64,000 nucleotides of DNA from Candidatus Jorgensenbacteria bacterium GW2011_GWB1_50_10 (GCA_001004105.1 LCQK01000002.1:75419-139418), one strand, 5' to 3'; positions 4,439 to 63,743 are shown, numbered from the stretch's first letter. The notes: generated by a model from the sequence alone, not told the origin. A program made the numbers and translations.

Positions 4439-5551
4439 ATGTCCGTATTTTATCTTAGCAAAACGGATTTGAAAAAAATGCGCGGCAAAACCGCTCTTGT
4501 TCGGGTTGACTTGAATATTGAGCCGGGTGCTGAAAAAAATTCTTTTCGTCTGGAGGCAATTTTGCCGACAATCCGCTTTCTCCTCGCGCGAGGCGCAAAA
4601 GTTGTAATCTTAAGTCACCGCGGCAGGCCCCGCGGCCGCGATAAAAACCTTTCTTTGCGTCCATTTGCCCCGATTCTCCAAAAAGAGTTAAAACAGCGAG
4701 TTGAGTTCATGACGGTGCTACCCCGCATGATAGCACCGCAGAGGGGCAAGGTATTTCTGCTGGGAAATTTGCGTTTTTGGAAAGGTGAGGAGAAAAACGA
4801 CGTCGGTTTCGCCCGCCGGCTCGCCGCACTCGGCGATTTTTATGTGAACGACGCCTTTGCCGTCTCGCACCGCAAGAACGCATCGGTCGTCGCCATCACA
4901 AGATTTTTGCCTTCCTATGCCGGCTTGCTTTTGGAAAAGGAGATTAAAAACCTGGGTGGTATACTTAAGTATACCACCCACCCGTTTACGATAATCTTGG
5001 GCGGCGGCAAGACCTCGGATAAGCTCGGGGTGATGAATTATTTCTGGAACAAAGCCGATAACCTTCTCTTGGGCGGTGCGCCGGCAAACACGGTGTTCGT
5101 CGCTCAAAAGTTGCCGGTAGGAAATTCGTTGATTGACAGAGGTTCAACCTCCCAAATATTGAAGTTAATTCGTAAGGAGGTTGAACCTCGTAAAATTGTG
5201 TTGCCGCTTGATGTCAAAATTGCCGACAAAAAGATTCTGGATATCGGCCCGCAGACGGTTGAGAAGTACAGCAAGATAATTTCTAAATCCAGAACAGTTA
5301 TCTGGAACGGCCCGCCCGGGCTTTTTGAAAAGAAGGGATTTGAAAAAGGAACAATCGGCATCTGGCGTGCCATCTTACGAAATAGGAAAGCGAAAATCAT
5401 TGTCGGCGGCGGCGAAACAACCGCGTCTTTTTCCCTAATTCATAATTCAAAATTCATGATTCCGAAGAATATATTTCTTTCCACCGGCGGCGGCGCCATG
5501 CTGAAATTCTTATCCGGCAGAAAACTGCCCGGGATTGAGGCGTTAAAATAA
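4439..5551 (+). CDS. pgk: Phosphoglycerate kinase
   Basis: VRVDLNIEP...ILPTIRFLLARGAKVVILSHRGRP N-domain signature. IILGGGKTSDKL and C-terminal GGGETTA motifs. Note the 24-nt palindrome at 4955-4978 embedded in-frame. Confidence 0.85.
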   Translation: MSVFYLSKTDLKKMRGKTALVRVDLNIEPGAEKNSFRLEAILPTIRFLLARGAKVVILSHRGRPRGRDKNLSLRPFAPILQKELKQRVEFMTVLPRMIAPQRGKVFLLGNLRFWKGEEKNDVGFARRLAALGDFYVNDAFAVSHRKNASVVAITRFLPSYAGLLLEKEIKNLGGILKYTTHPFTIILGGGKTSDKLGVMNYFWNKADNLLLGGAPANTVFVAQKLPVGNSLIDRGSTSQILKLIRKEVEPRKIVLPLDVKIADKKILDIGPQTVEKYSKIISKSRTVIWNGPPGLFEKKGFEKGTIGIWRAILRNRKAKIIVGGGETTASFSLIHNSKFMIPKNIFLSTGGGAMLKFLSGRKLPGIEALK

Positions 5552-15951: not shown

Positions 15952-15967
15952 CTATGACATGTCATAG
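15952..15967. repeat. Perfect palindrome CTATGACATGTCATAG
   Basis: Read directly. Shares the TATGAC-N4-GTCATA core with the palindromes at 25690, 27501 and 27926. Confidence 0.7.
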
Positions 15968-15988: not shown

Positions 15989-17380
15989 TTATTTTTTGAG
16001 CAATGAATCGGTGTAGTTCACAATATCGCCGGCGCCCATCATTACCACAATAGGGGATAGGTTATAGGTGATAGGTTTTAGGAGTTCTTTAATTTTGGTT
16101 CTGATTATTTTTGGGTTATTCAAGTAAAAAACTTTCAGCGTTTTTGCTCTTTGCGATATGCGCTTTGCGAGGTCAGCCGACGTGTAGCCCCTGTGGGGTT
16201 TGTCGCGGCCAGCGACTTGATAAATCGGCAGCAAGAACAAATAATCGGCCGAATCAAAGGCGGAAATGAAATCTTTGAACAAGTTTTGGGTGCGGTGGGC
16301 CTGGTGTGGCTGGAAGACGCAGATTATTTTCTTTTTGGGGAATTTCTCGCGGAAGGCCTGGAGAGTAGCTTTGATTTCGGTGGGGTGGTGGGCGTAGTCG
16401 TCGTAGACGGGAATTTTAGGTTGTAGGTGATAGGTTGTAGGTGATAGATAACCCCTAAATTCCATTCGGCGCCAGGCGCCGCGGTACGAGCCCAGAGCTT
16501 TCAATATTATCTGCTCTTTAATGCCGAGCGCGCGGGCGAGCGTGAAAACAGCGAGAGCATTGGAAACATTATGTTGCCCTGGGATTTTTAAAACCCTTTT
16601 TATTTTATGGTAGGCGCTATAATTAATTATAGCGCCGTACCAGATTACTTTGAAGTTTTTACGTTTTGCGATTTTTTGGATTTTGGATTTTAAACTGTGG
16701 AGGTTTTTATCATCCCGGTTCGCGATTAAAATGCCGCCGGATTTTATATTCCCGATGAATTTGAGAAATGACTTTTTGACGTTTGCTAAATTTTTGTAAA
16801 CGTCCAAATGCTCCCTATCAATGTTCGTGATGACAGCGTAAGTGGGGGAGTAGTTATGAAAAGAGGCCTTCCATTCGTCCGCTTCAAGGGTGAGGTAGTC
16901 GCTCTTGCCGTTCCGGAAATTGGAATTGCCGAACTCTTTAAGCCGGGTGCCGACGATAACCGTCGGGTCCAGACCGGTTTTCATAAGAACGAGCGAGGTT
17001 AAAGCCGTCGTCGTGCTCTTGCCGTGGGCGCCGGCAACGGCAATGGTTTTATATGCCTTAGTCAAGGCCCCAAGCATTTGGGGATAAGTGAAAGCAGGGA
17101 TGTCCCGGCGCCTCGCTCCCCTTAATTCGGGGTTTTCCGGGGTAATAGCTTGGTTATAGACGACCAAAGCGGTTTTGGGGCTGATATTGGCTTTTTTATG
17201 CCCAATTTTGAGTTTTAAGCCCTTCTTTTGGAGCTTTCGGAGTAAATCACTCGGGGCGATATCAGACCCGGAAATAGCCCAATTTTGGGCTAAAAACCAC
17301 TGCGCCAAAGCGCTAATGCCGATTCCACCCACGCCGATAAAGTGGGCCAAGGGTTTATTTAAAGGGGAGAGGTTTTTCAT
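15989..17380 (-). CDS. murC: UDP-N-acetylmuramate--L-alanine ligase
   Basis: HFIGVGGIGISALAQ, GAHGKSTTTAL, EADEW, DDYAHHPTEI. Contains embedded repeats at 16054-16084, 16415-16460 and 16613-16636. Confidence 0.85.
   Translation of the reverse strand: MKNLSPLNKPLAHFIGVGGIGISALAQWFLAQNWAISGSDIAPSDLLRKLQKKGLKLKIGHKKANISPKTALVVYNQAITPENPELRGARRRDIPAFTYPQMLGALTKAYKTIAVAGAHGKSTTTALTSLVLMKTGLDPTVIVGTRLKEFGNSNFRNGKSDYLTLEADEWKASFHNYSPTYAVITNIDREHLDVYKNLANVKKSFLKFIGNIKSGGILIANRDDKNLHSLKSKIQKIAKRKNFKVIWYGAIINYSAYHKIKRVLKIPGQHNVSNALAVFTLARALGIKEQIILKALGSYRGAWRRMEFRGYLSPTTYHLQPKIPVYDDYAHHPTEIKATLQAFREKFPKKKIICVFQPHQAHRTQNLFKDFISAFDSADYLFLLPIYQVAGRDKPHRGYTSADLAKRISQRAKTLKVFYLNNPKIIRTKIKELLKPITYNLSPIVVMMGAGDIVNYTDSLLKK
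16613..16636. repeat. Perfect 24-nt palindrome GGCGCTATAATTAATTATAGCGCC inside murC (encodes GAIINYSA)
   Basis: Read directly. Identical copy inside murG at 23222-23245. Confidence 0.85.
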
Positions 17381-17790: not shown

Positions 17791-19133
17791 TGGACAGTTC
17801 GGCTTACGGCGCCGGCTGGAATATTCGGCAAATAATCCCGCGGATTAATTGTAACACCAACCGGCACCAAACCGGCTGCCGGCGCGATGGATTTCAAACT
17901 CACGCTCGGCGTCCAGTAAAGCGTAAGGTGCAGGTGAGCGCCGTAGGAGTAGCCAGTGTCGCCGGAGTAGCCGATTGTGTCGCCTTTCATAATCCGCTCG
18001 CCTTTCTGGACGATTTGACGCGAGAGATGGGCGTAGATGCTCGTTAAACCGTTGTCGTGTTGAATCAAAACGTATTTGCCGTATTGGTATTTCAACCAAC
18101 GCGAGGTGCCACGGTCGTTGTTATCCACGGCGATGACTGTGCCGGTTTCAACCGCCATAATTGGTGTGCCGATCGGCGCCCGGAAATCAACGCCGTTGTG
18201 TGTCTTACTCCGGTATGCGCGCTGAGCGAAGGCCGTAGGGCCGAAGTCCTGCGTAAGATAGGGATTCTCCACCGGAAAACCGATAACGCCGGGACGTTTT
18301 ATCGGCAGCAAACTCGGGTCGAAAGATTTGCGGAGTTGGTCTTCATATTCGTCCATAATCTTGCTGATTTTCTCCTGCTGTTTGTCCAGTTCCGCGATTT
18401 GGGCTTGGTAGATTTTTTCCTGGTTTTTGGTTTGAGTGAGAACCGTGTTTTTGACGGTTTTCTGGGCCTGGACTATCTGCTGGCGATTCGTTAGATTGAC
18501 TCGTTCTCTTTCTTTCTGCGCCTGTTTTATCTGTTCCTCGCTTAATTTTTCCACCAAGTCCCCCTGATATTTACGGAGTTCTTCAGCGCTCGCGTTTAAA
18601 TCACTATTCAAGGTGGCGATAGATTGGGCTTCCGAGACGCTCTCGGCCAAACTCTGGTTTCGCAGGAAGATTATCAGGAAATTTTCCCGATCTTTTTGCT
18701 GGAGTTCCACCATAAGCCGCCCGATAGTCGCTTTTTTGTTGTCTATACTTTCCTCAATGCCTTTGATGTCGCCGCTTAGCGATTCTATTTCCAGCGCGAG
18801 TTTATCGAGCGTCACCTGATTCGCTTTGATGGAGAGATTAAGTTGACTGATGTTGTAGTCAATGGTTTTTAATTCCTTTTGGAGGGAACTTTTAAGAGAG
18901 CCGGTTTGTTCCAATTGTTCTTCAATCTTGGCGCGTTCCTCCATTAATTGCTGAAGCTCGGCGTTTTTGGCGTCAATCTGCGACCGTAAACTATCAGCCG
19001 TGGCGGCATTGCCGTTCCCACTCCCCTCCTCCGCGGTTTGCGAGAAGATCGGCGACGTTGAAATTAACCCGATTAATAGAATTATGAATAATGAATAACG
19101 AATTAATTTCATACCATCTCTTGAAGATAACAT
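17787..19133 (-). CDS. M23-family metallopeptidase with N-terminal coiled coil (EnvC-like)
   Basis: Long Q/E/K-rich coiled coil followed by LytM motifs: HNGVDF, TSIYAHLS, GAHLHLTL. Confidence 0.8.
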   Translation of the reverse strand: MLSSRDGMKLIRYSLFIILLIGLISTSPIFSQTAEEGSGNGNAATADSLRSQIDAKNAELQQLMEERAKIEEQLEQTGSLKSSLQKELKTIDYNISQLNLSIKANQVTLDKLALEIESLSGDIKGIEESIDNKKATIGRLMVELQQKDRENFLIIFLRNQSLAESVSEAQSIATLNSDLNASAEELRKYQGDLVEKLSEEQIKQAQKERERVNLTNRQQIVQAQKTVKNTVLTQTKNQEKIYQAQIAELDKQQEKISKIMDEYEDQLRKSFDPSLLPIKRPGVIGFPVENPYLTQDFGPTAFAQRAYRSKTHNGVDFRAPIGTPIMAVETGTVIAVDNNDRGTSRWLKYQYGKYVLIQHDNGLTSIYAHLSRQIVQKGERIMKGDTIGYSGDTGYSYGAHLHLTLYWTPSVSLKSIAPAAGLVPVGVTINPRDYLPNIPAGAVSRTVQ

Positions 19134-20794
19134 TTTTCACAGTAAACCGTTGGGAATTCCGATTCGGTATGGACGCTGTCAATTTCGGCGCCGCATTTGC
19201 CGCAGGTCCTCTTATGTAAAACGAGATGGTTGGCGATAAATTTCAGGCGTAAATGGTGCCTTTCAAATGGTGCCTCGCGCGGTATAGGCAGGTCAAACCT
19301 TCTGTAGAAAGCGAGTTCCATTGGTATAATCCGGTACGCCTTATCCGACGTTTCGCCCTTCAGCACCTTTTCAAAAATATCGTTTTTCACGTCGCGGATG
19401 TCATCTGGAATAACGTAATCCGAAAAATCGTATTTTTTGTCCGCTTCATAATCGTTCCAGTTAAATCCCCTCTTTATCGCTTCTTCTTTTGTGAGCGGAA
19501 AGTATTCGCAAGCCACCGTTTCGTTGTAGCCGTAAGGGGAAAGCTCATAAGGGAAAAACTCGCCATATTTGTAAATCCTCTCTCTTCTATCCGTATACGG
19601 TTTTTCGTTCATGTGCGCTATTATTTTCTCCCTTAATTTTTCATATTCTTCTTTGGGATATTGCTTGTTTAGGATGCAGAAGTTTTTGTTTCTCGCATTG
19701 ATGCAGCCAAAACAATCGTTGCAGTTGATGAGTAAGTGGGAATATTCAACGTTCGTTGATTCGCGGATAATGCTCGTTGAAAACTTCATATTGAAGAGTT
19801 TTTCCGAACCGGCCAAGAATTCATAGGCGAGTTCGCACCACCAAACCGAGGTGACGTCCATTGAATCTTTCACTTCCAGAGTAAAGAACATGTATTTTGA
19901 GTCCTCAGTTTTTTCCACGTTCCAGCACTCCTTGCAGTTTTTCGATTCTTTGATTTGGGTGCCGGTTACGTTTACCGATTTTTCGATGAAAGTCGCACGC
20001 TGGGGCTGGGTTTTCCAGAAAGACTCCGTCTGATCTTTGAGTTTTTTGAAATTTTTGTAGGAGCCCAGGCGATTTTCGCTCATGAATTTTTCAAATTCCT
20101 CTTTTGGAACCGGTTTGTTGAATACGTGATATTGTTTGTGCCGCAAGCCGGAGCAGCCGAAAATATTGCTGCAATTTCGGCAGTCAAAGGAAAAATAAGC
20201 GTCGCGGCAGTCGTAACAGAAAATGGAGTTAAAAACCTTGTATCCCCTCTCACTTAGAATTGTTCCGTAAGCGAACTGGCCGTTCATGTGCCAGAAATTG
20301 TCAAAGCAGTCCTTGCATTTCAGGACGTACTGATTGTAAGCGCAATCTTCGTTCAAGTGACCGCCGAAGTTAAGGTAGCAATTTTTATCGTCAAGTTCGT
20401 AATTAATCCAGGGGCTGTTGATTGAATTTTGCTGGAGGAGCGACAAGTGCGGGACGTCTTTTTGAAGTTCTTTCCATTGTTCAAAAAAAGTTTTTGAAAA
20501 ATTATATTCACGTCCATATTTCAAAGGATCCCACCCGTCCGAATAGAAGCAATCCGGGCAGTAGGTTTTGAAAGGCTTATCGGGCGAATACATGGCGATG
20601 ATTTCTTTTTTGCAAAGGTCGCAGGGGCGTTTGTAAAGACTGCGCTCGTTTCTTTGAGTAAATCTTCTCTGAAGCCGGCACTTTGGGCACCAAGTGGGTG
20701 CTGGAACATTGATTTTTTTGTAAAAATCAAAATCTTCCGCTTCTATCGTGAATTGTTGTTTGCAATTCTGACAGGTTTTGGTTTCGGCGTTCAT
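19109..20794 (-). CDS. Cys-rich protein, paralog A of an uncharacterised family (561 aa)
   Basis: N-terminus ETKTCQNCKQQF-IE-EDFDFYKKINVP-PTWCPKCRLQRR is shared with 23917..25677 and 25705..27459. Internal duplicated module C-DC...C-NCFGC-GLR-K-Y...NK-Y-KEEYEK. About 40 Cys. Confidence 0.6.
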   Translation of the reverse strand: MNAETKTCQNCKQQFTIEAEDFDFYKKINVPAPTWCPKCRLQRRFTQRNERSLYKRPCDLCKKEIIAMYSPDKPFKTYCPDCFYSDGWDPLKYGREYNFSKTFFEQWKELQKDVPHLSLLQQNSINSPWINYELDDKNCYLNFGGHLNEDCAYNQYVLKCKDCFDNFWHMNGQFAYGTILSERGYKVFNSIFCYDCRDAYFSFDCRNCSNIFGCSGLRHKQYHVFNKPVPKEEFEKFMSENRLGSYKNFKKLKDQTESFWKTQPQRATFIEKSVNVTGTQIKESKNCKECWNVEKTEDSKYMFFTLEVKDSMDVTSVWWCELAYEFLAGSEKLFNMKFSTSIIRESTNVEYSHLLINCNDCFGCINARNKNFCILNKQYPKEEYEKLREKIIAHMNEKPYTDRRERIYKYGEFFPYELSPYGYNETVACEYFPLTKEEAIKRGFNWNDYEADKKYDFSDYVIPDDIRDVKNDIFEKVLKGETSDKAYRIIPMELAFYRRFDLPIPREAPFERHHLRLKFIANHLVLHKRTCGKCGAEIDSVHTESEFPTVYCEKCYLQEMV

Positions 20795-22837: not shown

Positions 22838-23920
22838 CTACTCTTTTTGAAGTATTTGGAGCAGTTTTTCGGCGATTGTGGAGGCGGCATCGGGCTTGGC
22901 GAAATTTTTAGCAGCCACACACATTGTTCTGGCGCGTTTTTTGTCCTTCATAATTTTTTCAATTTCGGTTTTCATGGTCGGCCAGTTTAAATTGTTTTCT
23001 TCCACAACGATTGCCGCGCCGGTTGCGGCATATTCGTAGGCATTCGCTTTTTGATGATTACTTGCCGATTCTTCTATCGGAATGAGGATAGAGGGTTTGC
23101 CGAAGGCGGCGATTTCAAAAATAGCGGCGGCCCCAGAGCGAGAAATTACCAAAGCGGTTTCCGAAAGTGCCTGCCCCAATTCCGCCGCGTTCAAAAAAGC
23201 CACCGGCCGGTAGTTTTTGGTGGCGCTATAATTAATTATAGCGCCTGAATTATTCTCTCCGGTTTGATGGATGACTTTACCGAATTTCAACAACTCTTTG
23301 AGGTTCGTGGAAATAAATGAATTGATGCGGGTTGCGCCCTGTGAACCGCCAAGGATAAGAATAGACATTCCAACATTCTTAAGAATGTTGGAATGTTGTG
23401 GGTTTGTTGCTTTCTCTACGAGTTCGGAACGGATGGGGTTGCCGACCACCTCGGTTTTGTTTTTCGGGAAATATTTAGCGGCAGCCGCAAAGGCGAGAAA
23501 TATTTTTTCGGCAAAGACGGCGGAGATGCGGTTGGTAAACCCCGGCACGGCGTCGGAGTCGTGAATCACGACCGGTATGAAAAAGCATTTGGCAGCAAGA
23601 ACGACCGGCAAGGCGCCGGGACCGCCCTTGGAAAAAACCAAACTAGGCTGCAAATAGAAAATATGGGCGATGGACTGCAAAATACTCCAGAAAAATTTGA
23701 AAATATCCGTGAAATTCTCCCAATCAAAATAGCGCCGAAACTTGCTTGAAGCAATCGGGAGAATTTTAATGCCTCTTTTTGCAAATTCGGCGTTCAAAGG
23801 GTGATTCGGACCGATGTAGAATAATTCCACCCCCCCGTTCTTTTGCAGTTCCTCCGCGACCGCAAGGAGCGGAAAAATGTGCCCTCCCGTCCCGCCCCCT
23901 GTTAATACGATTTTTTTCAT
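22838..23920 (-). CDS. murG: UDP-N-acetylglucosamine--N-acetylmuramyl-(pentapeptide) pyrophosphoryl-undecaprenol N-acetylglucosamine transferase
   Basis: N-terminal LTGGGTGGHIFPLLAVAEEL. C-terminal GASELAA-like region. 360 aa. Contains the 24-nt palindrome at 23222-23245. Confidence 0.85.
   Translation of the reverse strand: MKKIVLTGGGTGGHIFPLLAVAEELQKNGGVELFYIGPNHPLNAEFAKRGIKILPIASSKFRRYFDWENFTDIFKFFWSILQSIAHIFYLQPSLVFSKGGPGALPVVLAAKCFFIPVVIHDSDAVPGFTNRISAVFAEKIFLAFAAAAKYFPKNKTEVVGNPIRSELVEKATNPQHSNILKNVGMSILILGGSQGATRINSFISTNLKELLKFGKVIHQTGENNSGAIINYSATKNYRPVAFLNAAELGQALSETALVISRSGAAAIFEIAAFGKPSILIPIEESASNHQKANAYEYAATGAAIVVEENNLNWPTMKTEIEKIMKDKKRARTMCVAAKNFAKPDAASTIAEKLLQILQKE
23222..23245. 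repeat. Perfect 24-nt palindrome GGCGCTATAATTAATTATAGCGCC inside murG (encodes GAIINYSA)
   Basis: Identical to 16613-16636. Confidence 0.85.
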
Positions 23921-25677
23921 ACTACTTCTGCGTTATAACACTGCTCGCAGTAAATGATATCCGGCCGCTCTGGAGCATAGGAGGTTTCAAATTTATTGGG
24001 ACAATAACCCTCTTCATGAGAGTGTTTTACGGTGTTCTTGTATATGCCGTTTTCCGAGGTATCTCCTGCACATTGGCACACTCGTGCATACAACTTCGCC
24101 CGGTTTCTTTGACTGATGCGGCTCCAGTGGCGACAGTCAACGCACGTTCGAGGCGCAGGAACGCTATTTTGTTTTAAGAATTGGATCTCCTGAGGAATGA
24201 TTCGGTATGCACGGCCGCACTCCGCGCATTTTATGACTTCCTTGCTGATTTCATCAGAGATATCGGCTATGGCATCAGGTAGATCAGTTGCATTCATCGT
24301 GGTTTGGTACTCGGTGGGGCTGGGATTACTCCATCTGAAACCTTGGGCCGCCGCTTCTTCTTTTGTAAGTGGGAAATGTTCCGGCGTAATTGTTTGATCG
24401 TAGGCAAATGGAGAGAATTCCGGCGGGAAGAATTCTCCGTAGCGATATTCCCTGCCCATAGCATCTTTGTATGGCATCACATTCATATGGGCGATAATTT
24501 TTTCCCGTAAGACGAAATAATCTTCTCTCGAATATTGTTTGTTTAAAATGCAATATTTTTTATTTCGCATACCGGCGCAGCCGAAAAGATTTGAGGACGA
24601 CTTGCAAAACATGCAATATTCAAGATCGTAAGCGTTTGACCAGCATTCGAAACAAAACTTTAAACGACCTCCCTGCCAGCCGCACACAGAGCCTTCGTAA
24701 ATAAGGTCCATGCCCCAGCCAGCGATGCTTGCATCGTACGAATCTTTTCCCGGAGGCACCTGAATATATTGGCAATATTTCAAATCTTCGCCCTCGCGCA
24801 CAAGATAGCTGTTCTTCGTATTTTTTGAGTGGGTGATAAATTCACCGCTCACATTCGTGTTTTGAATGCCTTGCAAGAATTTATTCGGAAATTGAATCCA
24901 AAAACTCCGCGCTTCAAGAGAGACCCTTGAGAAACCGCTCCACGTACTAAGATTCATCGCTTTGAGTTTCGTTTCGTACTCTTCCTTCGAATACTGCACA
25001 TTGAAGATGCGGTATTTTTGCATTCTAAGATTCACGCACCCGAAGCAATCACTGCATCCCCGGCAATCTCTGGAGAACCAGACATCATTACAATCCTCGC
25101 AGCGAGACGAGAAATGGGTTTCGTAGCACTTCGTAAGCCAAAACGAACCATAACACCGTTCGCATTTCTGGAGGTGCGAGTTGTCCACGCAACTTTTACA
25201 GCTGTCTATTGCGTTCCCATAGGCGCTGTCTTCGGTGTGATTGGAATTAAACAGAAGATAACAATTTTTGAGTTCAGCCGCATTCGCTGAATATTCGCTG
25301 TTCACCATATTCAGCACGCTTGCATGTGCCTTCGGAACTTTCTTATTTAGTTCATGGAGCTGGGCCAAGAACGGACGCGAGAAATCGACTTCCTGACCGT
25401 ATTTCGCCGGATCCCAAACGTCAGTATTCCATTCCTCGTCTTTATACAGAGTATAGCCGGCTTCAGGAGGATACAAGGTCAGGATATTTTCCTGAGATAA
25501 CGCGCTTTTTCCCCGAAAGAGCTTTCTTTCGTTTCTAAATATCGCGCGCCGTTGGAACCTGCACTCCGGGCACCATGTCGGTGGAGGGACATTGATTTTT
25601 TTATAAAAATTAAAATCCTCCGGCTCTATTATGAATTGATTCTTGCAGTTCTGACAGGTTTTAGTCTCGGTATTCAT
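23917..25677 (-). CDS. Cys-rich protein, paralog B (586 aa)
   Basis: Shares the N-terminal ETKTCQNCK...CPECRFQRR and C-terminal ...YCEQCYNAEVV with paralog C. Confidence 0.6.
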   Translation of the reverse strand: MNTETKTCQNCKNQFIIEPEDFNFYKKINVPPPTWCPECRFQRRAIFRNERKLFRGKSALSQENILTLYPPEAGYTLYKDEEWNTDVWDPAKYGQEVDFSRPFLAQLHELNKKVPKAHASVLNMVNSEYSANAAELKNCYLLFNSNHTEDSAYGNAIDSCKSCVDNSHLQKCERCYGSFWLTKCYETHFSSRCEDCNDVWFSRDCRGCSDCFGCVNLRMQKYRIFNVQYSKEEYETKLKAMNLSTWSGFSRVSLEARSFWIQFPNKFLQGIQNTNVSGEFITHSKNTKNSYLVREGEDLKYCQYIQVPPGKDSYDASIAGWGMDLIYEGSVCGWQGGRLKFCFECWSNAYDLEYCMFCKSSSNLFGCAGMRNKKYCILNKQYSREDYFVLREKIIAHMNVMPYKDAMGREYRYGEFFPPEFSPFAYDQTITPEHFPLTKEEAAAQGFRWSNPSPTEYQTTMNATDLPDAIADISDEISKEVIKCAECGRAYRIIPQEIQFLKQNSVPAPRTCVDCRHWSRISQRNRAKLYARVCQCAGDTSENGIYKNTVKHSHEEGYCPNKFETSYAPERPDIIYCEQCYNAEVV

Positions 25678-25689
25678 CGTCTCAATTTT

Positions 25690-25713
25690 GGGTGGTATGA
25701 CATGTCATACCAC
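25690..25713. repeat. Perfect 24-nt palindrome GGTGGTATGACATGTCATACCACC between Cys-rich paralogs C and B
   Basis: Read directly. Hybrid of the GGTGGTAT...ATACCACC arms and the TATGACATGTCATA core. Confidence 0.8.
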
Positions 25714-27459
25714 CTCGGCATTGTAACATTGTTCACAGTACACAATTTCCGGCCTTTCGGGAGAGTAGCTTGTTTCGAATTCGTTAGGACACGCCTCCGT
25801 TCCGTGAAAATGAAAAGCGGTGTTTTGGTAAACTCCTTTTCCCGATTTTTCTCCGGCACAGGTGCATTTGCGGTGCCAGAGTTTTCTGGGATTGCGCATT
25901 GAAAAACGGTCGGTCCGACGGCACGGAAAACACTTTGCCGGTACCGGGACGCGGAGCTTTCGATATAGATCGAGTTCCAGAGGAATAAGCTTAAAAGCCG
26001 TCGCACACAACGGGTGGGTCTTCTTTTCTCCTTCGGAGTCCTGCGTTGCGCATTTGATGACTTGATTCAATATAGAGTCATCGGTTTCAGAAATTTTTTG
26101 CGGCACTTCAGAGGCACGCATTGTGGATTGGTATTCTCTCTCAGTGCGGTCATGCCAGGGTAATCCTTGTTTTTTAGCTTCGTCACGCATCAATGGGAAA
26201 AAATCTTGGGTTACCGATTCATTGTAGGCAAACGGAGATGTATTGGCTGGAAAATATTCACCCCATTCCCCCGTTTTCTTCATATGCTCAATGATTTTAT
26301 CTTTGAGTTTGAAATACTCATCTTTTGTATATTGTTTATTCAAAATACAAAATCCTTTTTGCCTTACGCCAAAACAACCGAAACAATCACTGCTTGAAAA
26401 GCACATATCGCAATAATAGCTGTCGGTCATTGTCCAGGAGCTGCGAATTGCCATGCAATTTCGCAAATAGGCGCACCCTTGAAGCTCATGGCAACGCTCA
26501 GCTTCCAATATTTCAGTTGAATCAAAACAATCCGTCATTTTCCAGGCGTCTTGGAGATAAGCGGTTTCTTTATTCTCGCGACAGTTGAAATCAAAACGGG
26601 CGCGCTCAGTGTTTTCCAGATAATCGCCAGTGGAATTATAAGATTTTGCGCCGTGATAGAATTTGCGCGGCATTGTAAGAGCAAATTTAGCCGTCTCCTG
26701 ACGAGCAGTGATTATAGCGTTACGGCTCCAATCGAATTCCCTCAAACGTTTTTCGTACTCTTCTTTTGAGAGCTGCTTGTTCAGCCAAAAATATTGTTTG
26801 TTGCGAAGACCAACGCAACCGAAACAATTGTTGCAACCGCGAAGGTCGATGCAGAACGACAATTCCACTGAATCAAAACAGTCCTGACACCACACGCATC
26901 GGGAGCAACGGCCGCAGTTAATGCACTCGTAGCATAATTCGCTTTTTTCGATCATGTAGCAATCAGCCGAGAAGTAGCTGCCCGGCTGAAACCAATTGCC
27001 GTACATGCATTTCTCGCTGCCGCCCGTAGCCGAGCACATATAACAATCCTTGTTGTCCTGCGATTGATTTGTGTACTCGCTATTGACGCTGTTGGAATTC
27101 ACTAAAGCAAGGTGAGGCACTACGCGGCGGAGATTCTCGTATTGTTCAAAAAATGGCCGGTTGAAATCAAAATCCCGGCTGTAAGACAAGGGATCCCACG
27201 CGTCCGATTTCCATACCTCCTGTTTATATACCGGGAATGGCGCGTCCGGACGATAAATAGAGACAATGGTTTCACCGGTAAAATTACATTTCCTCTGGTA
27301 TAAACTCCACTCATTCCTATCTAATAATCTCCTTCGATAGCGGCAATCCGGACAGAATGTCGGCGGCGGGACGTTGATTTTCTTGTAAAAATCGAAATCT
27401 TCCGGTTCGATTACAAAGTTTTGTTTGCAGTTTTGGCAGGTTTTGGTTTCTGAACTCAT
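25705..27459 (-). CDS. Cys-rich protein, paralog C (about 584 aa from MSSETKTC)
   Basis: Start moved to the Met homologous to paralogs A/B (MSSETKTCQNCKQNF). The track ORF extends to 27486. Confidence 0.6.
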   Translation of the reverse strand: MSSETKTCQNCKQNFVIEPEDFDFYKKINVPPPTFCPDCRYRRRLLDRNEWSLYQRKCNFTGETIVSIYRPDAPFPVYKQEVWKSDAWDPLSYSRDFDFNRPFFEQYENLRRVVPHLALVNSNSVNSEYTNQSQDNKDCYMCSATGGSEKCMYGNWFQPGSYFSADCYMIEKSELCYECINCGRCSRCVWCQDCFDSVELSFCIDLRGCNNCFGCVGLRNKQYFWLNKQLSKEEYEKRLREFDWSRNAIITARQETAKFALTMPRKFYHGAKSYNSTGDYLENTERARFDFNCRENKETAYLQDAWKMTDCFDSTEILEAERCHELQGCAYLRNCMAIRSSWTMTDSYYCDMCFSSSDCFGCFGVRQKGFCILNKQYTKDEYFKLKDKIIEHMKKTGEWGEYFPANTSPFAYNESVTQDFFPLMRDEAKKQGLPWHDRTEREYQSTMRASEVPQKISETDDSILNQVIKCATQDSEGEKKTHPLCATAFKLIPLELDLYRKLRVPVPAKCFPCRRTDRFSMRNPRKLWHRKCTCAGEKSGKGVYQNTAFHFHGTEACPNEFETSYSPERPEIVYCEQCYNAEVV

Positions 27460-27500
27460 TTTATTTATTGAAATTATACCACCCAATGTTAATAACCGAT

Positions 27501-27524
27501 GGTGATATGACGCGTCATATCACC
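27501..27524. repeat. Perfect 24-nt palindrome GGTGATATGACGCGTCATATCACC
   Basis: Lies between the HTH gene stop and the paralog C start. Confidence 0.8.
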
Positions 27525-27907
27525 TAATAATGATGCATGTAGACTTTTCCGTATTTAGTGCGGCGGTAGTATCTGTAAGGTTTCTTTTTTGAGGGATGAC
27601 TGCCGTATATTTTCTTTTTCCGCTCTGTCTTGCTCCTCTCCCGGTAACTTCTGTAATCGCCCTCTCTCAAAGCTTTTTTGATGCTGCTTACAGTTTGAAG
27701 CGAGAGTCCCATTTCCCTGGCAATTTGTCTGAATCTTTTCCCTGAGTTAATTCCCTCTCTTACCGCGGCTCGCATCACTAAGTTATGGCGTTCATAAGAG
27801 GTGACTAAGGACTTTAATAGAGTTTTTGATTTTAGCATTTCCTGCCAGCAAGCGGTTTCCCATTCTTTACGGGAAGAAAAACGGTTAAGAGACGGTAATT
27901 TAAACAT
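27524..27907 (-). CDS. Small basic helix-turn-helix protein (putative DNA-binding regulator)
   Basis: GKRFRQIAREMGLSLQTVSSIKKALRE is a resolvase/sigma-r4-type HTH. Basic K/R/Y-rich tail. Confidence 0.5.
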   Translation of the reverse strand: MFKLPSLNRFSSRKEWETACWQEMLKSKTLLKSLVTSYERHNLVMRAAVREGINSGKRFRQIAREMGLSLQTVSSIKKALREGDYRSYRERSKTERKKKIYGSHPSKKKPYRYYRRTKYGKVYMHHY

Positions 27908-27925
27908 TTATTAAGTTTAACATAT

Positions 27926-27953
27926 CTGCTGATATGACGCGTCATATCAGCAG
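27926..27953. repeat. Perfect 28-nt palindrome CTGCTGATATGACGCGTCATATCAGCAG upstream of the HTH gene
   Basis: Read directly. About 19 nt upstream of the HTH start. Confidence 0.8.
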
Positions 27954-27975
27954 ATGGAGAGTGTAAATATTTAAG

Positions 27976-28218
27976 TTAATTGGAGTTATGTAAATCTGAA
28001 AAGATGTCTCGGAGGGATACTAAAAACCAGATGCCGTTTAATACAGTAAAAGGAATACTGGAGAGCAATATTGCATAAGCTATAAGTAGCCCGGAGCCAA
28101 TGAGGTTTAGTATGTCGAATTTTATACTGTCTCGATCTAATTTATGCGATTGGTTAAGAAAGAAAGCAATTAGTATTATTGCCGCGCCAGCCGAGCCGAT
28201 TAAAGTAGTTACCTCCAT
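27976..28218 (-). CDS. Small hypothetical membrane protein (2 predicted TM helices)
   Basis: 80-aa hydrophobic ORF immediately downstream of ftsW. Confidence 0.3.
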   Translation of the reverse strand: MEVTTLIGSAGAAIILIAFFLNQSHKLDRDSIKFDILNLIGSGLLIAYAILLSSIPFTVLNGIWFLVSLRDIFSDLHNSN

Positions 28219-37018: not shown

Positions 37019-37042
37019 GGTGGTATACTTAAGTATACCACC
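37019..37042. repeat. Perfect 24-nt palindrome GGTGGTATACTTAAGTATACCACC (intergenic copy)
   Basis: Identical to 4955-4978 (inside pgk) and 63714-63737. Confidence 0.85.
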
Positions 37043-46017: not shown

Positions 46018-46091
46018 GTTGGGGGGTCGTCTAACGGTAGGACATCGCCCTTTGGAGGCGAGTATCGGGGTTCGAATCCCTGCCCCCCAGC
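46018..46091 (+). tRNA. tRNA-Gln (anticodon TTG)
   Basis: Manual fold: acceptor TGGGGGG/CCCCCCA (U1-A72), D-arm GTC/GAC, anticodon arm TCGCC-CTTTGGA-GGCGA, T-arm CGGGG-TTCGAAT-CCCTG, discriminator G, encoded CCA. Confidence 0.8.
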
Positions 46092-53381: not shown

Positions 53382-53405
53382 GGTGGTATACATATGTATA
53401 CCACC
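53382..53405. repeat. Perfect 24-nt palindrome GGTGGTATACATATGTATACCACC (variant with CATATG centre)
   Basis: Differs from the 4955/37019/63714 copies only in the central 4 nt. Confidence 0.8.
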
Positions 53406-57317: not shown

Positions 57318-57388
57318 TGCGGGATACGGGAATTGAACTCGTGCCTCAACCTTGGGAAGGTCGCGTTCTGCCACTAAACTAATCCCGC
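57318..57388 (-). tRNA. tRNA-Gly (anticodon CCC)
   Basis: Reverse complement folds: acceptor GCGGGAT/ATCCCGC, D-arm GTTT-AGTGGCA-GAAC, anticodon arm CGACC-TTCCCAA-GGTTG, T-loop TTCAATT. One A:C mismatch in the T-stem. No encoded CCA. Confidence 0.65.
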
Positions 57389-63691: not shown

Positions 63692-63713
63692 AAGAATTAT
63701 TTATAAAAATTGA

Positions 63714-63737
63714 GGTGGTATACTTAAGTATACCACC
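63714..63737. repeat. Perfect 24-nt palindrome GGTGGTATACTTAAGTATACCACC (intergenic copy)
   Basis: Identical to 4955-4978 and 37019-37042. Confidence 0.85.
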
Positions 63738-63743
63738 TGATCT

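Follow-up and report, generated by a model that had tools for sequence, protein, structure and literature searches.

The 64-kb window analysed here, a single stretch of DNA from a Candidatus Jorgensenbacteria genome (Candidate Phyla Radiation (CPR)/Patescibacteria), contains three genes for related cysteine-rich proteins (paralogs A, B and C) and a gene for a small helix-turn-helix (HTH) protein that is bracketed by perfect palindromes. The explanation that we favour, with a probability of roughly 0.55, is that the Cys-rich proteins are scaffolds or adaptors and that the HTH protein is a TrpR-like autorepressor that acts through the palindromes. The second half of this explanation is the better supported, and comparison among genomes argues well for an HTH protein that would bind the palindromes and repress its own extended -10, leaderless promoter. 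The elements concerned are the following (all coordinates are window positions):

27924-27955: palindrome O1, a 32-nt perfect palindrome, ATCTGCTGATATGACGCGTCATATCAGCAGAT, centred near -32 of the HTH promoter, candidate autoregulatory operator
27914-27922, minus strand: extended -10 box of the HTH gene, TGtTAAACT, 6 nt before the HTH ATG
27524-27907, minus strand: gene for the TrpR-like HTH protein, 127 aa, isoelectric point (pI) 10.5
27501-27524: palindrome O2, a 24-nt perfect palindrome, GGTGATATGACGCGTCATATCACC, whose initial G also closes the HTH stop codon
27473-27481, minus strand: extended -10 box of paralog C, TGGTATAAT, 13 nt before the C ATG
25705-27459, minus strand: Cys-rich paralog C, 584 aa counted from the ATG at 27459, 39 Cys
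25691-25714: palindrome O3, a 24-nt perfect palindrome, GGTGGTATGACATGTCATACCACC, which holds the TGA stop codon of C and ends 13 nt before the ATG of B
23917-25677, minus strand: Cys-rich paralog B, 586 aa, 33 Cys
22838-23920, minus strand: murG, with the Glyco_transf_28 N- and C-terminal domains of Pfam
19109-20794, minus strand: Cys-rich paralog A, 561 aa, 29 Cys, sharing 4 nt with the upstream CYTH gene and 25 nt with the downstream M23 peptidase gene
15952-15967: palindrome O4, CTATGACATGTCATAG, 22 nt past the murC stop codon, between convergent genes

An earlier sequence-only reading of this DNA had described the three Cys-rich reading frames, the HTH reading frame, the motifs that the three proteins share and their common C-terminal end, all of which are present, on the minus strand. 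Its figure of about 40 cysteines comes close for C and is too high for A and B. The palindromes are all perfect, as it had claimed, with the corrections that O1 extends over 32 nt (only the inner 28 had been given) and that O3 lies one base away from the position assigned to it.

The HTH protein appears to be a variant of the TrpR/HisR kind of regulator, marked by an added arm and hairpin, by over-long palindromes that bracket its gene and by a putative one-residue specificity switch. The AlphaFold (AF2) model consists of an HTH domain and a tail, and a TrpR-like helical fold containing the helix-turn-helix was found, with a recognition helix at residues 70-82, a basic arm at 83-112 that includes Arg89, and a C-terminal beta-hairpin. 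We collected 169 homologs, all in metagenome-assembled genomes (MAGs) of Patescibacteria, and most of them (53-74% identity) have precomputed matches to PF01371; the family profile also matches PDB chain 3kor, annotated as a possible Trp repressor, with an E-value of 1.8e-4, and searches of Pfam, NCBIfam and PHROGs with the HTH protein returned HTH matches only. The recognition helix (SPQTISSIKK) is almost invariant among the homologs, while a conserved basic arm (Y-R-S-Y-x-E-R-G/S-K-T-E-R-K-K) and the C-terminal beta-hairpin (R-T-K-Y-G) are additions relative to TrpR. Proteins of the TrpR/HisR family bind 20-bp palindromes and often autoregulate (PMC9413887). The family studied here resembles E. 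coli TrpR and HisR/YerC of Firmicutes (PF01371) in its candidate operator, a palindrome of about 20 bp that varies from lineage to lineage, and in the position of that operator in the regulator's own promoter, with predicted autoregulation. It differs in length (127-150 aa, versus less than 100 aa for TrpR), in the basic arm with its specificity residue and the C-terminal beta-hairpin, in the second palindrome that follows the stop codon in most loci, in palindromes that are perfect over up to 42 nt, and in its surroundings, since no amino-acid biosynthesis genes were found among its neighbours and no evidence of a co-repressor was obtained.

Evidence for recognition of the palindromes by this protein comes from 57 usable loci, each of about 10 kb, that contain a homologous HTH gene. 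In 45 of them a perfect palindrome of the CTATG...CATAG type lies 1-250 nt upstream of the gene (mostly 1-60 nt), and 34 of the 57 have a further palindrome between -6 and +76 nt after the HTH stop codon. The sites fall into the classes TATGAC, TATGCT, TATGCC, TGTGAT and TTTGAT, with an outer CTATG half-site that is almost invariant, and the central dinucleotide varies together with the residue that corresponds to Arg89: this column has the highest mutual information of the alignment (1.59 bits, the next column reaching 1.01), a value reached in none of 300 permutations, with Arg in all 22 'AC' sites and Leu in 13 of 21 'CT' sites. The upstream palindromes are also phased with a promoter, since an extended -10 box (TGnTAnnnT), oriented towards the gene, starts exactly 16 nt from the palindrome centre in 20 of 58 upstream palindromes and in none of 42 downstream ones, and within +14 to +18 in 25 of the 58. 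With this spacing the operator would cover the -35/spacer region at about -28, and the ATG, only 6-10 nt past the -10 box, indicates that the HTH mRNAs would be leaderless. Because site classes track one residue, promoters are phased and the TrpR family offers precedent, the comparison favours direct recognition and autorepression, with the HTH protein of the window as a putative reader of palindromes of the form GGTGnTATGAC-NN-GTCATAnCACC; the autoregulatory layout proposed in the sequence-only reading thus recurs well beyond this genome. In the mechanism that we propose, the invariant recognition helix would read the invariant CTATG half-site and the arm residue (Arg89) the central bases.

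Within the window, TATGACNNGTCATA occurs four times, against 0.01 expected, and in the 10-kb HTH loci it is found beside the HTH gene only. O1 overlaps the -35/spacer region of the extended -10 promoter, from which a leaderless HTH mRNA is predicted, and binding there would repress the HTH gene. O2 is centred at about -46 relative to the TGGTATAAT promoter box of paralog C. The start of C is taken as the ATG at 27459, which matches the MNxETKTC N-termini of A and B and leaves room for this -10 box; a mechanically chosen TTG start at 27486 would run through it. The left arm of O3 (GAG-GTG-GTA-TGA) doubles as the conserved C-terminal E-V-V-stop of C, an arrangement found again in another locus (L108), and O4 marks the end of the string of same-strand genes that runs from B to murC. 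Scans for sigma-70 promoters and intrinsic terminators performed no better than on shuffled sequence and missed the extended -10 boxes. O2, O3 and O4 would not be promoter elements and most likely would act as protein-bound roadblocks and/or hairpin terminators, so that the four sites would punctuate three units: the HTH gene, C, and the string B-murG-gltX-CYTH-A-M23-x-murC. The positions of O2-O4 point, with moderate strength, to punctuation or throttling of transcription into C and into the B-to-murC string.

The palindromes could also be explained as RNA hairpins only, working as terminators or stabilisers without specific recognition by a protein and standing beside HTH genes incidentally, a reading that we consider quite unlikely. 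It draws on the stability of the folds in RNA form (-14 to -20.5 kcal/mol, z-scores of -4 to -5.6), on the position of three of the four window palindromes after stop codons and of O4 between convergent genes, on downstream copies that have no adjacent promoter, and on outer arms that vary and yet stay complementary in palindromes many of which exceed any transcription factor footprint. None of the palindromes is followed by a U-tract, however, their centres are self-complementary, which is not required of an RNA loop, and the CTATG core is kept across dozens of genomes and, in the 10-kb loci, is confined to places beside HTH genes. The covariation of the central bases with one protein residue and the 16-nt phasing with the -10 box, which puts the upstream copies outside the HTH transcript, also speak for a protein that reads DNA. 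The over-long self-complementary arms nevertheless suggest that a hairpin or cruciform larger than the protein footprint has been selected for and, since a transcription factor footprint alone does not explain them, the downstream copies may have a further role as hairpins, roadblocks or insulators. A small cassette, mobile or selfish, composed of the HTH gene and its flanking palindromes (compare RAYT/REP and IS200) and lying beside the Cys-rich genes by chance, would account for the same bracketed unit in unrelated contexts, for the two to four HTH copies of some MAGs, for solo palindromes (O3, O4 and those of L100, L108 and L091), for the lack of the unit in the syntenic locus L100, and for weak matches of the HTH protein to HTH domains of transposases and invertases. 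The resemblance to REP/RAYT and IS200/IS605 elements extends to a small gene bracketed by hairpin-capable palindromes with occasional solo copies. It ends at the protein, 127 aa that comprise an HTH and a basic tail and no catalytic domain (neither HUH nor Y1 was found with Pfam, NCBIfam, PHROGs or AF2), at the absence of dispersal in bulk (four palindrome copies in 64 kb) and at the phasing of the upstream palindrome with a promoter. Copies in the same genome are 38-60% identical and often belong to different site classes, which argues against recent transposition, no target-site duplications were apparent in the flanks that were read, and neither the HTH nor the Cys-rich family was found in viral contigs; a cassette of this sort is improbable.

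As a separate observation, HTH-flanking palindromes are perfect over 28-44 nt in many of the loci L008-L064 (42 nt in L040, L057 and L060, 40-44 nt in L059).

The HTH gene and its palindromes make up a self-contained module that does not depend on the Cys-rich genes and that here lies between ftsW and the pair of C and B. Its contexts in other genomes are unrelated (UvrD, ThrRS, LTD, MurC), the immediate neighbours are mostly singletons, and the downstream gene is convergent in 21 of 53 HTH loci. The sequence-only reading had tied the HTH protein to the Cys-rich genes. This association was recovered in about 6 of the 57 HTH loci, where a Cys-rich gene is directly beside the HTH gene (L016, with a tandem pair, L021, L026, L030, L043 and L041, all of the TATGAC class), and was not recovered from the opposite side, given that none of 80 Cys-rich loci contains an HTH gene and that most HTH copies are beside unrelated genes. 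Adjacency is still about ten times the expectation for a family that makes up about 0.5-1% of genes, an expectation that is itself a rough estimate. HTH-type palindromes also occur at the ends of Cys-rich genes that have no HTH gene nearby (L100, L108, L091). The L100 locus, which is syntenic with the window, has such a palindrome between its two Cys-rich genes and lacks an HTH gene between FtsW and the first of them, indicating that the HTH module is an addition in the lineage of the window. No second or decayed HTH paralog was found beside the solo palindrome after murC. Control of Cys-rich genes by the HTH protein is plausible as a trait local to a sub-clade, judging from these adjacencies.

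Paralogs A, B and C are ancient members of a very large, unnamed, Patescibacteria-wide family of cytoplasmic proteins of about 560-600 aa. Their pairwise identity is 35-40%, and they share an N-terminus (ETKTCQNCK..F.IE.EDF.FYKKINVP.PT.CP.CR..RR), a duplicated module (..FGC.G.R.K.Y...NKQY.KEEY) and a YCE.CY..E(V/M)V end. A hypothetical protein of Candidatus Jorgensenbacteria GW2011_GWA1 matches paralog B with 100% identity. A word-indexed search, which considered up to 8,000 candidates, gave at least 7,938 significant matches to the family and, among the matches listed, full-length relatives with 53-67% identity come from Jorgensen-, Lipton-, Giovannoni-, Sung-, Curtiss-, Nomura- and Gracilibacteria or Paceibacterota, all labelled as hypothetical and none with a Pfam domain. 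An exhaustive profile search yielded 4,973 representative clusters at 50% identity, 2,124 of them with E-values of 1e-30 or lower. The earlier statement that the proteins could not be assigned to a named family is borne out, since no family was found for A, B or C in Pfam, NCBIfam, PADLOC (no match to the anti-phage defence models), PHROGs or a PDB sequence search. A PDB sequence-profile search with the family returned noise only, the best PHROGs match (phrog_15341, of unknown function, E-value 2.8e-4) is not usable, and nothing relevant was found in the literature on the Cys-rich family and PF13451. Profile and structure searches, then, identified the HTH protein as TrpR-like and left the Cys-rich family without a characterised relative: it is already in the databases as hypothetical proteins and has no known counterpart beyond its domain folds.

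The architecture of the family rests on an AlphaFold model of paralog B, built on 65 sequences (predicted local distance difference test (pLDDT) 85.7, predicted template modelling score (pTM) 0.86), and on profile comparison. From the N-terminus, the predicted domains are a treble-clef Zn finger, a helical linker, two homologous beta-helix modules with Cys ladders, an alpha/beta part, another treble-clef Zn finger homologous to the first and, at the C-terminus, a Zn ribbon. The first finger (residues 1-45) is modelled as hairpin-helix-helix; C8, C11, C36 and C39 are invariant in it, and in isolation it scores 21.9 bits against zf_Tbcl (PF13451), below the cut-off (24). This finger (4-52) is homologous to residues 480-528 (hhalign probability 98.5%), and the modules at 124-240 and 275-393, which lie between the fingers, are rich in coil and strand and have a CxxC ladder with a period of about 12 residues, are homologous to each other (probability 99.4%, E-value 1e-21), in agreement with the internal duplication noted from the sequence. 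The predicted ribbon at 529-586 includes C534, C536, H552, H554, C559, C577 and C580. The proteins have a pI of 6.5-7.1, with two basic fingers (+4 and +7), and their translations contain no obvious N-terminal signal, hydrophobic segment or membrane-targeting sequence; disulfides are unlikely because the proteins are cytoplasmic. Foldseek found nothing in the PDB with an E-value below 0.5, and the hexapeptide-repeat signature (Pfam Hexapep) is absent. The closest known domains are zf_Tbcl and zf_Tbcl_2 (PF13451, PF23477), with which the family shares the CxxC...F.I...D/E..FY.K....P..C..CR motif and the predicted hairpin-helix-helix fold, and the C-terminal ribbon also resembles the zf_Tbcl_2 domain carried by ATPases of the type IV coupling protein (T4CP) kind. 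In the known members that were seen, zf_Tbcl makes up a small protein (66 aa) or the C-terminal tag of an ATPase; in the Cys-rich family a double beta-helix of about 480 aa is capped by two copies, and zf_Tbcl itself has no established function. Insect Cys-rich antifreeze proteins and left-handed beta-helix proteins resemble the family at the level of fold only, with no sequence relationship (2-9% identity), and the Cys-rich family has neither their Thr ice-binding ladders nor their hexapeptide repeats.

The genomic neighbourhood of the family was examined in 80 metagenomic loci, plus further loci such as L003, L146 and L147. In 51 of the 80 there are two to eight Cys-rich copies, always on one strand and usually abutting; L091 (1-11087) has eight, L147 (6537-17137) six, and L146 (1-21779) an unbroken run of 12 or more paralogs that spans over 21 kb, save for CutA1 and a T4CP-like ATPase. 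Identity within a locus is 33-48% (median 41.8%), below the median of 57% for the best match in another organism, so the arrays are old sets of paralogs and not recent amplifications. The only frequent neighbour that is not itself a member of the family is a TrwB/TraG/VirD4 (T4CP)-like ATPase, found above Pfam cut-offs in 22 of the 80 loci, often on both sides of an array, and likewise in L003, L146 and L147. These ATPases have their Walker A motif at residues 34-72, which indicates that they lack the N-terminal membrane domain. They occur in a long form of about 600-730 aa and a short form of about 490 aa, which often sandwich the Cys-rich genes (L147 1579-6411; L068, L072, L098 and L141), and the long form ends in a ribbon (CxxC..F.P...RP.YC..C) that is like the C-terminus of the Cys-rich proteins and has the precomputed Pfam label zf_Tbcl_2. 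The association with T4CP-like ATPases is a property of the whole Cys-rich family and not of the window locus. Rarer neighbours, counted over the 80 loci, are CutA1 (8), a DUF8128-like membrane protein (7), a protein with Sigma70_r4 and HARE-HTH domains (5), MreB (5), SecDF (4) and PGK (4). A 2025 survey reported 5,713 VirD4-like T4CPs in Patescibacteria, just 148 of them near virB4, and considered that these proteins may be exapted for other functions (PMC12102498). In the model that we propose, the Cys-rich proteins would be zinc-stabilised, probably hetero-oligomeric scaffolds or adaptors whose basic Zn fingers would bind nucleic acid or a partner protein, and which would work with the T4CP-like ATPases at the cell envelope. 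The neighbourhood and the predicted fold hint weakly at such a zinc-stabilised scaffold or adaptor, possibly hetero-oligomeric, that acts with orphan T4CP-like ATPases.

Other functions have been considered for these proteins. A role as envelope or division factors, for example as bactofilin-like beta-helical scaffolds that organise peptidoglycan synthesis, follows from the window itself, where the stop codon of B and the start codon of murG overlap in ATGA (23917-23920), so that murG is possibly translationally coupled to B, where A is beside an EnvC-like M23 peptidase gene, and where the neighbours identified with Pfam are CYTH, M23 (EnvC-like), GltX, MurG, FtsW, MurC and MraY. The predicted beta-helix would suit it, bactofilins being polymers with a beta-helical fold that put cell-wall enzymes in place; a heteropolymer would be in keeping with the many conserved paralogs, and MreB and SecDF appear among the neighbours counted above. 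The cell-wall operon context that had been read from the window stands there but is found in only about four of some 85 loci, the recurrences being L100 (FtsW-Cys-Cys-MurG-GltX-M23), L104 (MraY-FtsW-MurG-Cys x3) and L147 (T4CP-MurG-T4CP-Cys x6), with MurG adjacent in all three. Cell-wall neighbours are missing from about 95% of loci, T4CP-like ATPases are found as neighbours some five times as often, and neither a Pfam match to the bactofilin family nor a membrane-targeting sequence was found, which makes this role unlikely. An Fe-S/redox function, or high-capacity metal storage, could be thought of because of the 29-39 Cys, the CxxC ladders, one CxxCxxCxxC run, the CutA1 neighbours, and a single locus (L001) in which a Cys-rich gene is near genes for a thioredoxin-reductase-like protein, a DsbA-like protein, a glutaredoxin and a peroxiredoxin. 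The best-conserved Cys, however, form classic C4 treble-clef and Zn-ribbon sets, several ladder Cys are just 29-60% conserved, no Fe-S family was matched in Pfam or NCBIfam, and, unlike in metallothioneins, conservation is high at non-Cys positions too (55-67% identity across classes). There is little probability in this proposal; the proteins are probably not redox enzymes, and nothing that was tested supports the redox role suggested earlier. Finally, the beta-helix modules might be catalytic, as divergent left-handed beta-helix acyltransferases or gamma-carbonic anhydrases, given the invariant acidic and Tyr residues E149, Y153, E328 and Y354. This is highly improbable, considering that no hexapeptide repeat matches in Pfam, that about 100 residues align at 2-9% identity with Foldseek E-values all above 0.5, and that similarity at such a level is generic to beta-solenoids. 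A cell-wall and redox story specific to this locus is thus not supported, and scaffolds or adaptors remain the reading that we prefer for the Cys-rich proteins.

Several observations weigh against the favoured explanation as a whole. For the regulator, the match of the window HTH protein to PF01371 (23.3 bits) falls short of the cut-off (27), the -10 box of its gene is at +21 from the centre of O1 and not at +16, and shared ancestry can inflate both the residue-base covariation and the fixed spacing. The half-length of the palindromes is at least 13 nt in 37 of 100 and at least 18 nt in 12 of 100, and two copies at the same gene have different outer arms, each being still self-complementary. 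O2 is upstream of the core of the promoter of C, so that any effect on C might go in either direction. For the Cys-rich proteins, model confidence is lowest in the beta-helix modules (pLDDT about 70), many members are solo genes amid housekeeping genes, and MurG, MreB and FtsW recur a few times as neighbours. A T4CP-like gene was sought in the 64-kb window and was not found, nor were relatives of DUF8128 or CutA.

The window and the compared loci contain some further features. An 80-aa membrane protein of the CBU_0592 family (27976-28218; NCBIfam, 44.5 bits) is encoded between ftsW and the HTH module and, like the HTH gene, is missing from the syntenic locus L100. In two unrelated loci, gene pairs for a HicA toxin and a DUF7387-like protein (L001 7588-8008 and L006 11510-11933) are directly upstream of Cys-rich genes or near HTH modules, and in L147 murG is placed between two T4CP-like ATPases. 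A second class of palindromes, GGTGGTATAC-(TTAA or ATAT)-GTATACCACC, is present at 4953-4980, 37019-37042, 53382-53405 and 63713-63738, with a half-site similar to that of the candidate HTH operator (GGTGnTATGAC); one copy is in frame within pgk, where it encodes LGGILKYTTH, and the other three are intergenic. An identical 24-nt perfect palindrome, GGCGCTATAATTAATTATAGCGCC, is found in murC (16613-16636) and in murG (23222-23245), encoding GAIINYSA in both. It contains TATAAT in both directions, the MurC of L047 has SAVTRHSA at the same place, and an internal promoter, a binding site or gene conversion could each account for it. That the palindromes within pgk, murC and murG are insertions was ruled out, as the ortholog alignments are gap-free there and the palindromes are length-neutral. 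The window also contains the 3' part of a 23S rRNA gene (1-1494), a 5S rRNA gene (2418-2529) and tRNA genes at 46020-46090 and 57318-57388; an Rfam scan of the window gave rRNA and tRNA only, which means that the palindromes belong to no known RNA family.

Some Patescibacteria, with their tiny genomes, spend at least 10-20 kb (more than 1-2% of the genome) on arrays of this conserved family, which has neither a Pfam family nor a solved structure. The pairing of Cys-rich genes with T4CP-like ATPases makes testable the role of the approximately 5,500 patescibacterial T4CPs that are encoded away from virB4 (PMC12102498). A bolder and doubtful proposal is that Cys-rich arrays and orphan soluble T4CP-like ATPases form a CPR-specific, envelope-associated machine that has gone unrecognised, which the DUF8128-like protein, CutA1 and sometimes MurG or MreB may join. 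If this were true, the ancient paralogs would assemble a zinc-stabilised beta-helical hetero-oligomer or filament that the ATPases would load or remodel, or that would serve them as an adaptor in the traffic of DNA or protein, and this would explain why thousands of T4CPs in Patescibacteria are encoded away from any type IV secretion system. For its part, the TrpR-like module offers a rare view of a CPR promoter and its operator, with an extended -10 box, predicted leaderless mRNAs and an operator that would sit at -28, and the HTH family would provide a specificity code in which one residue corresponds to one dinucleotide.

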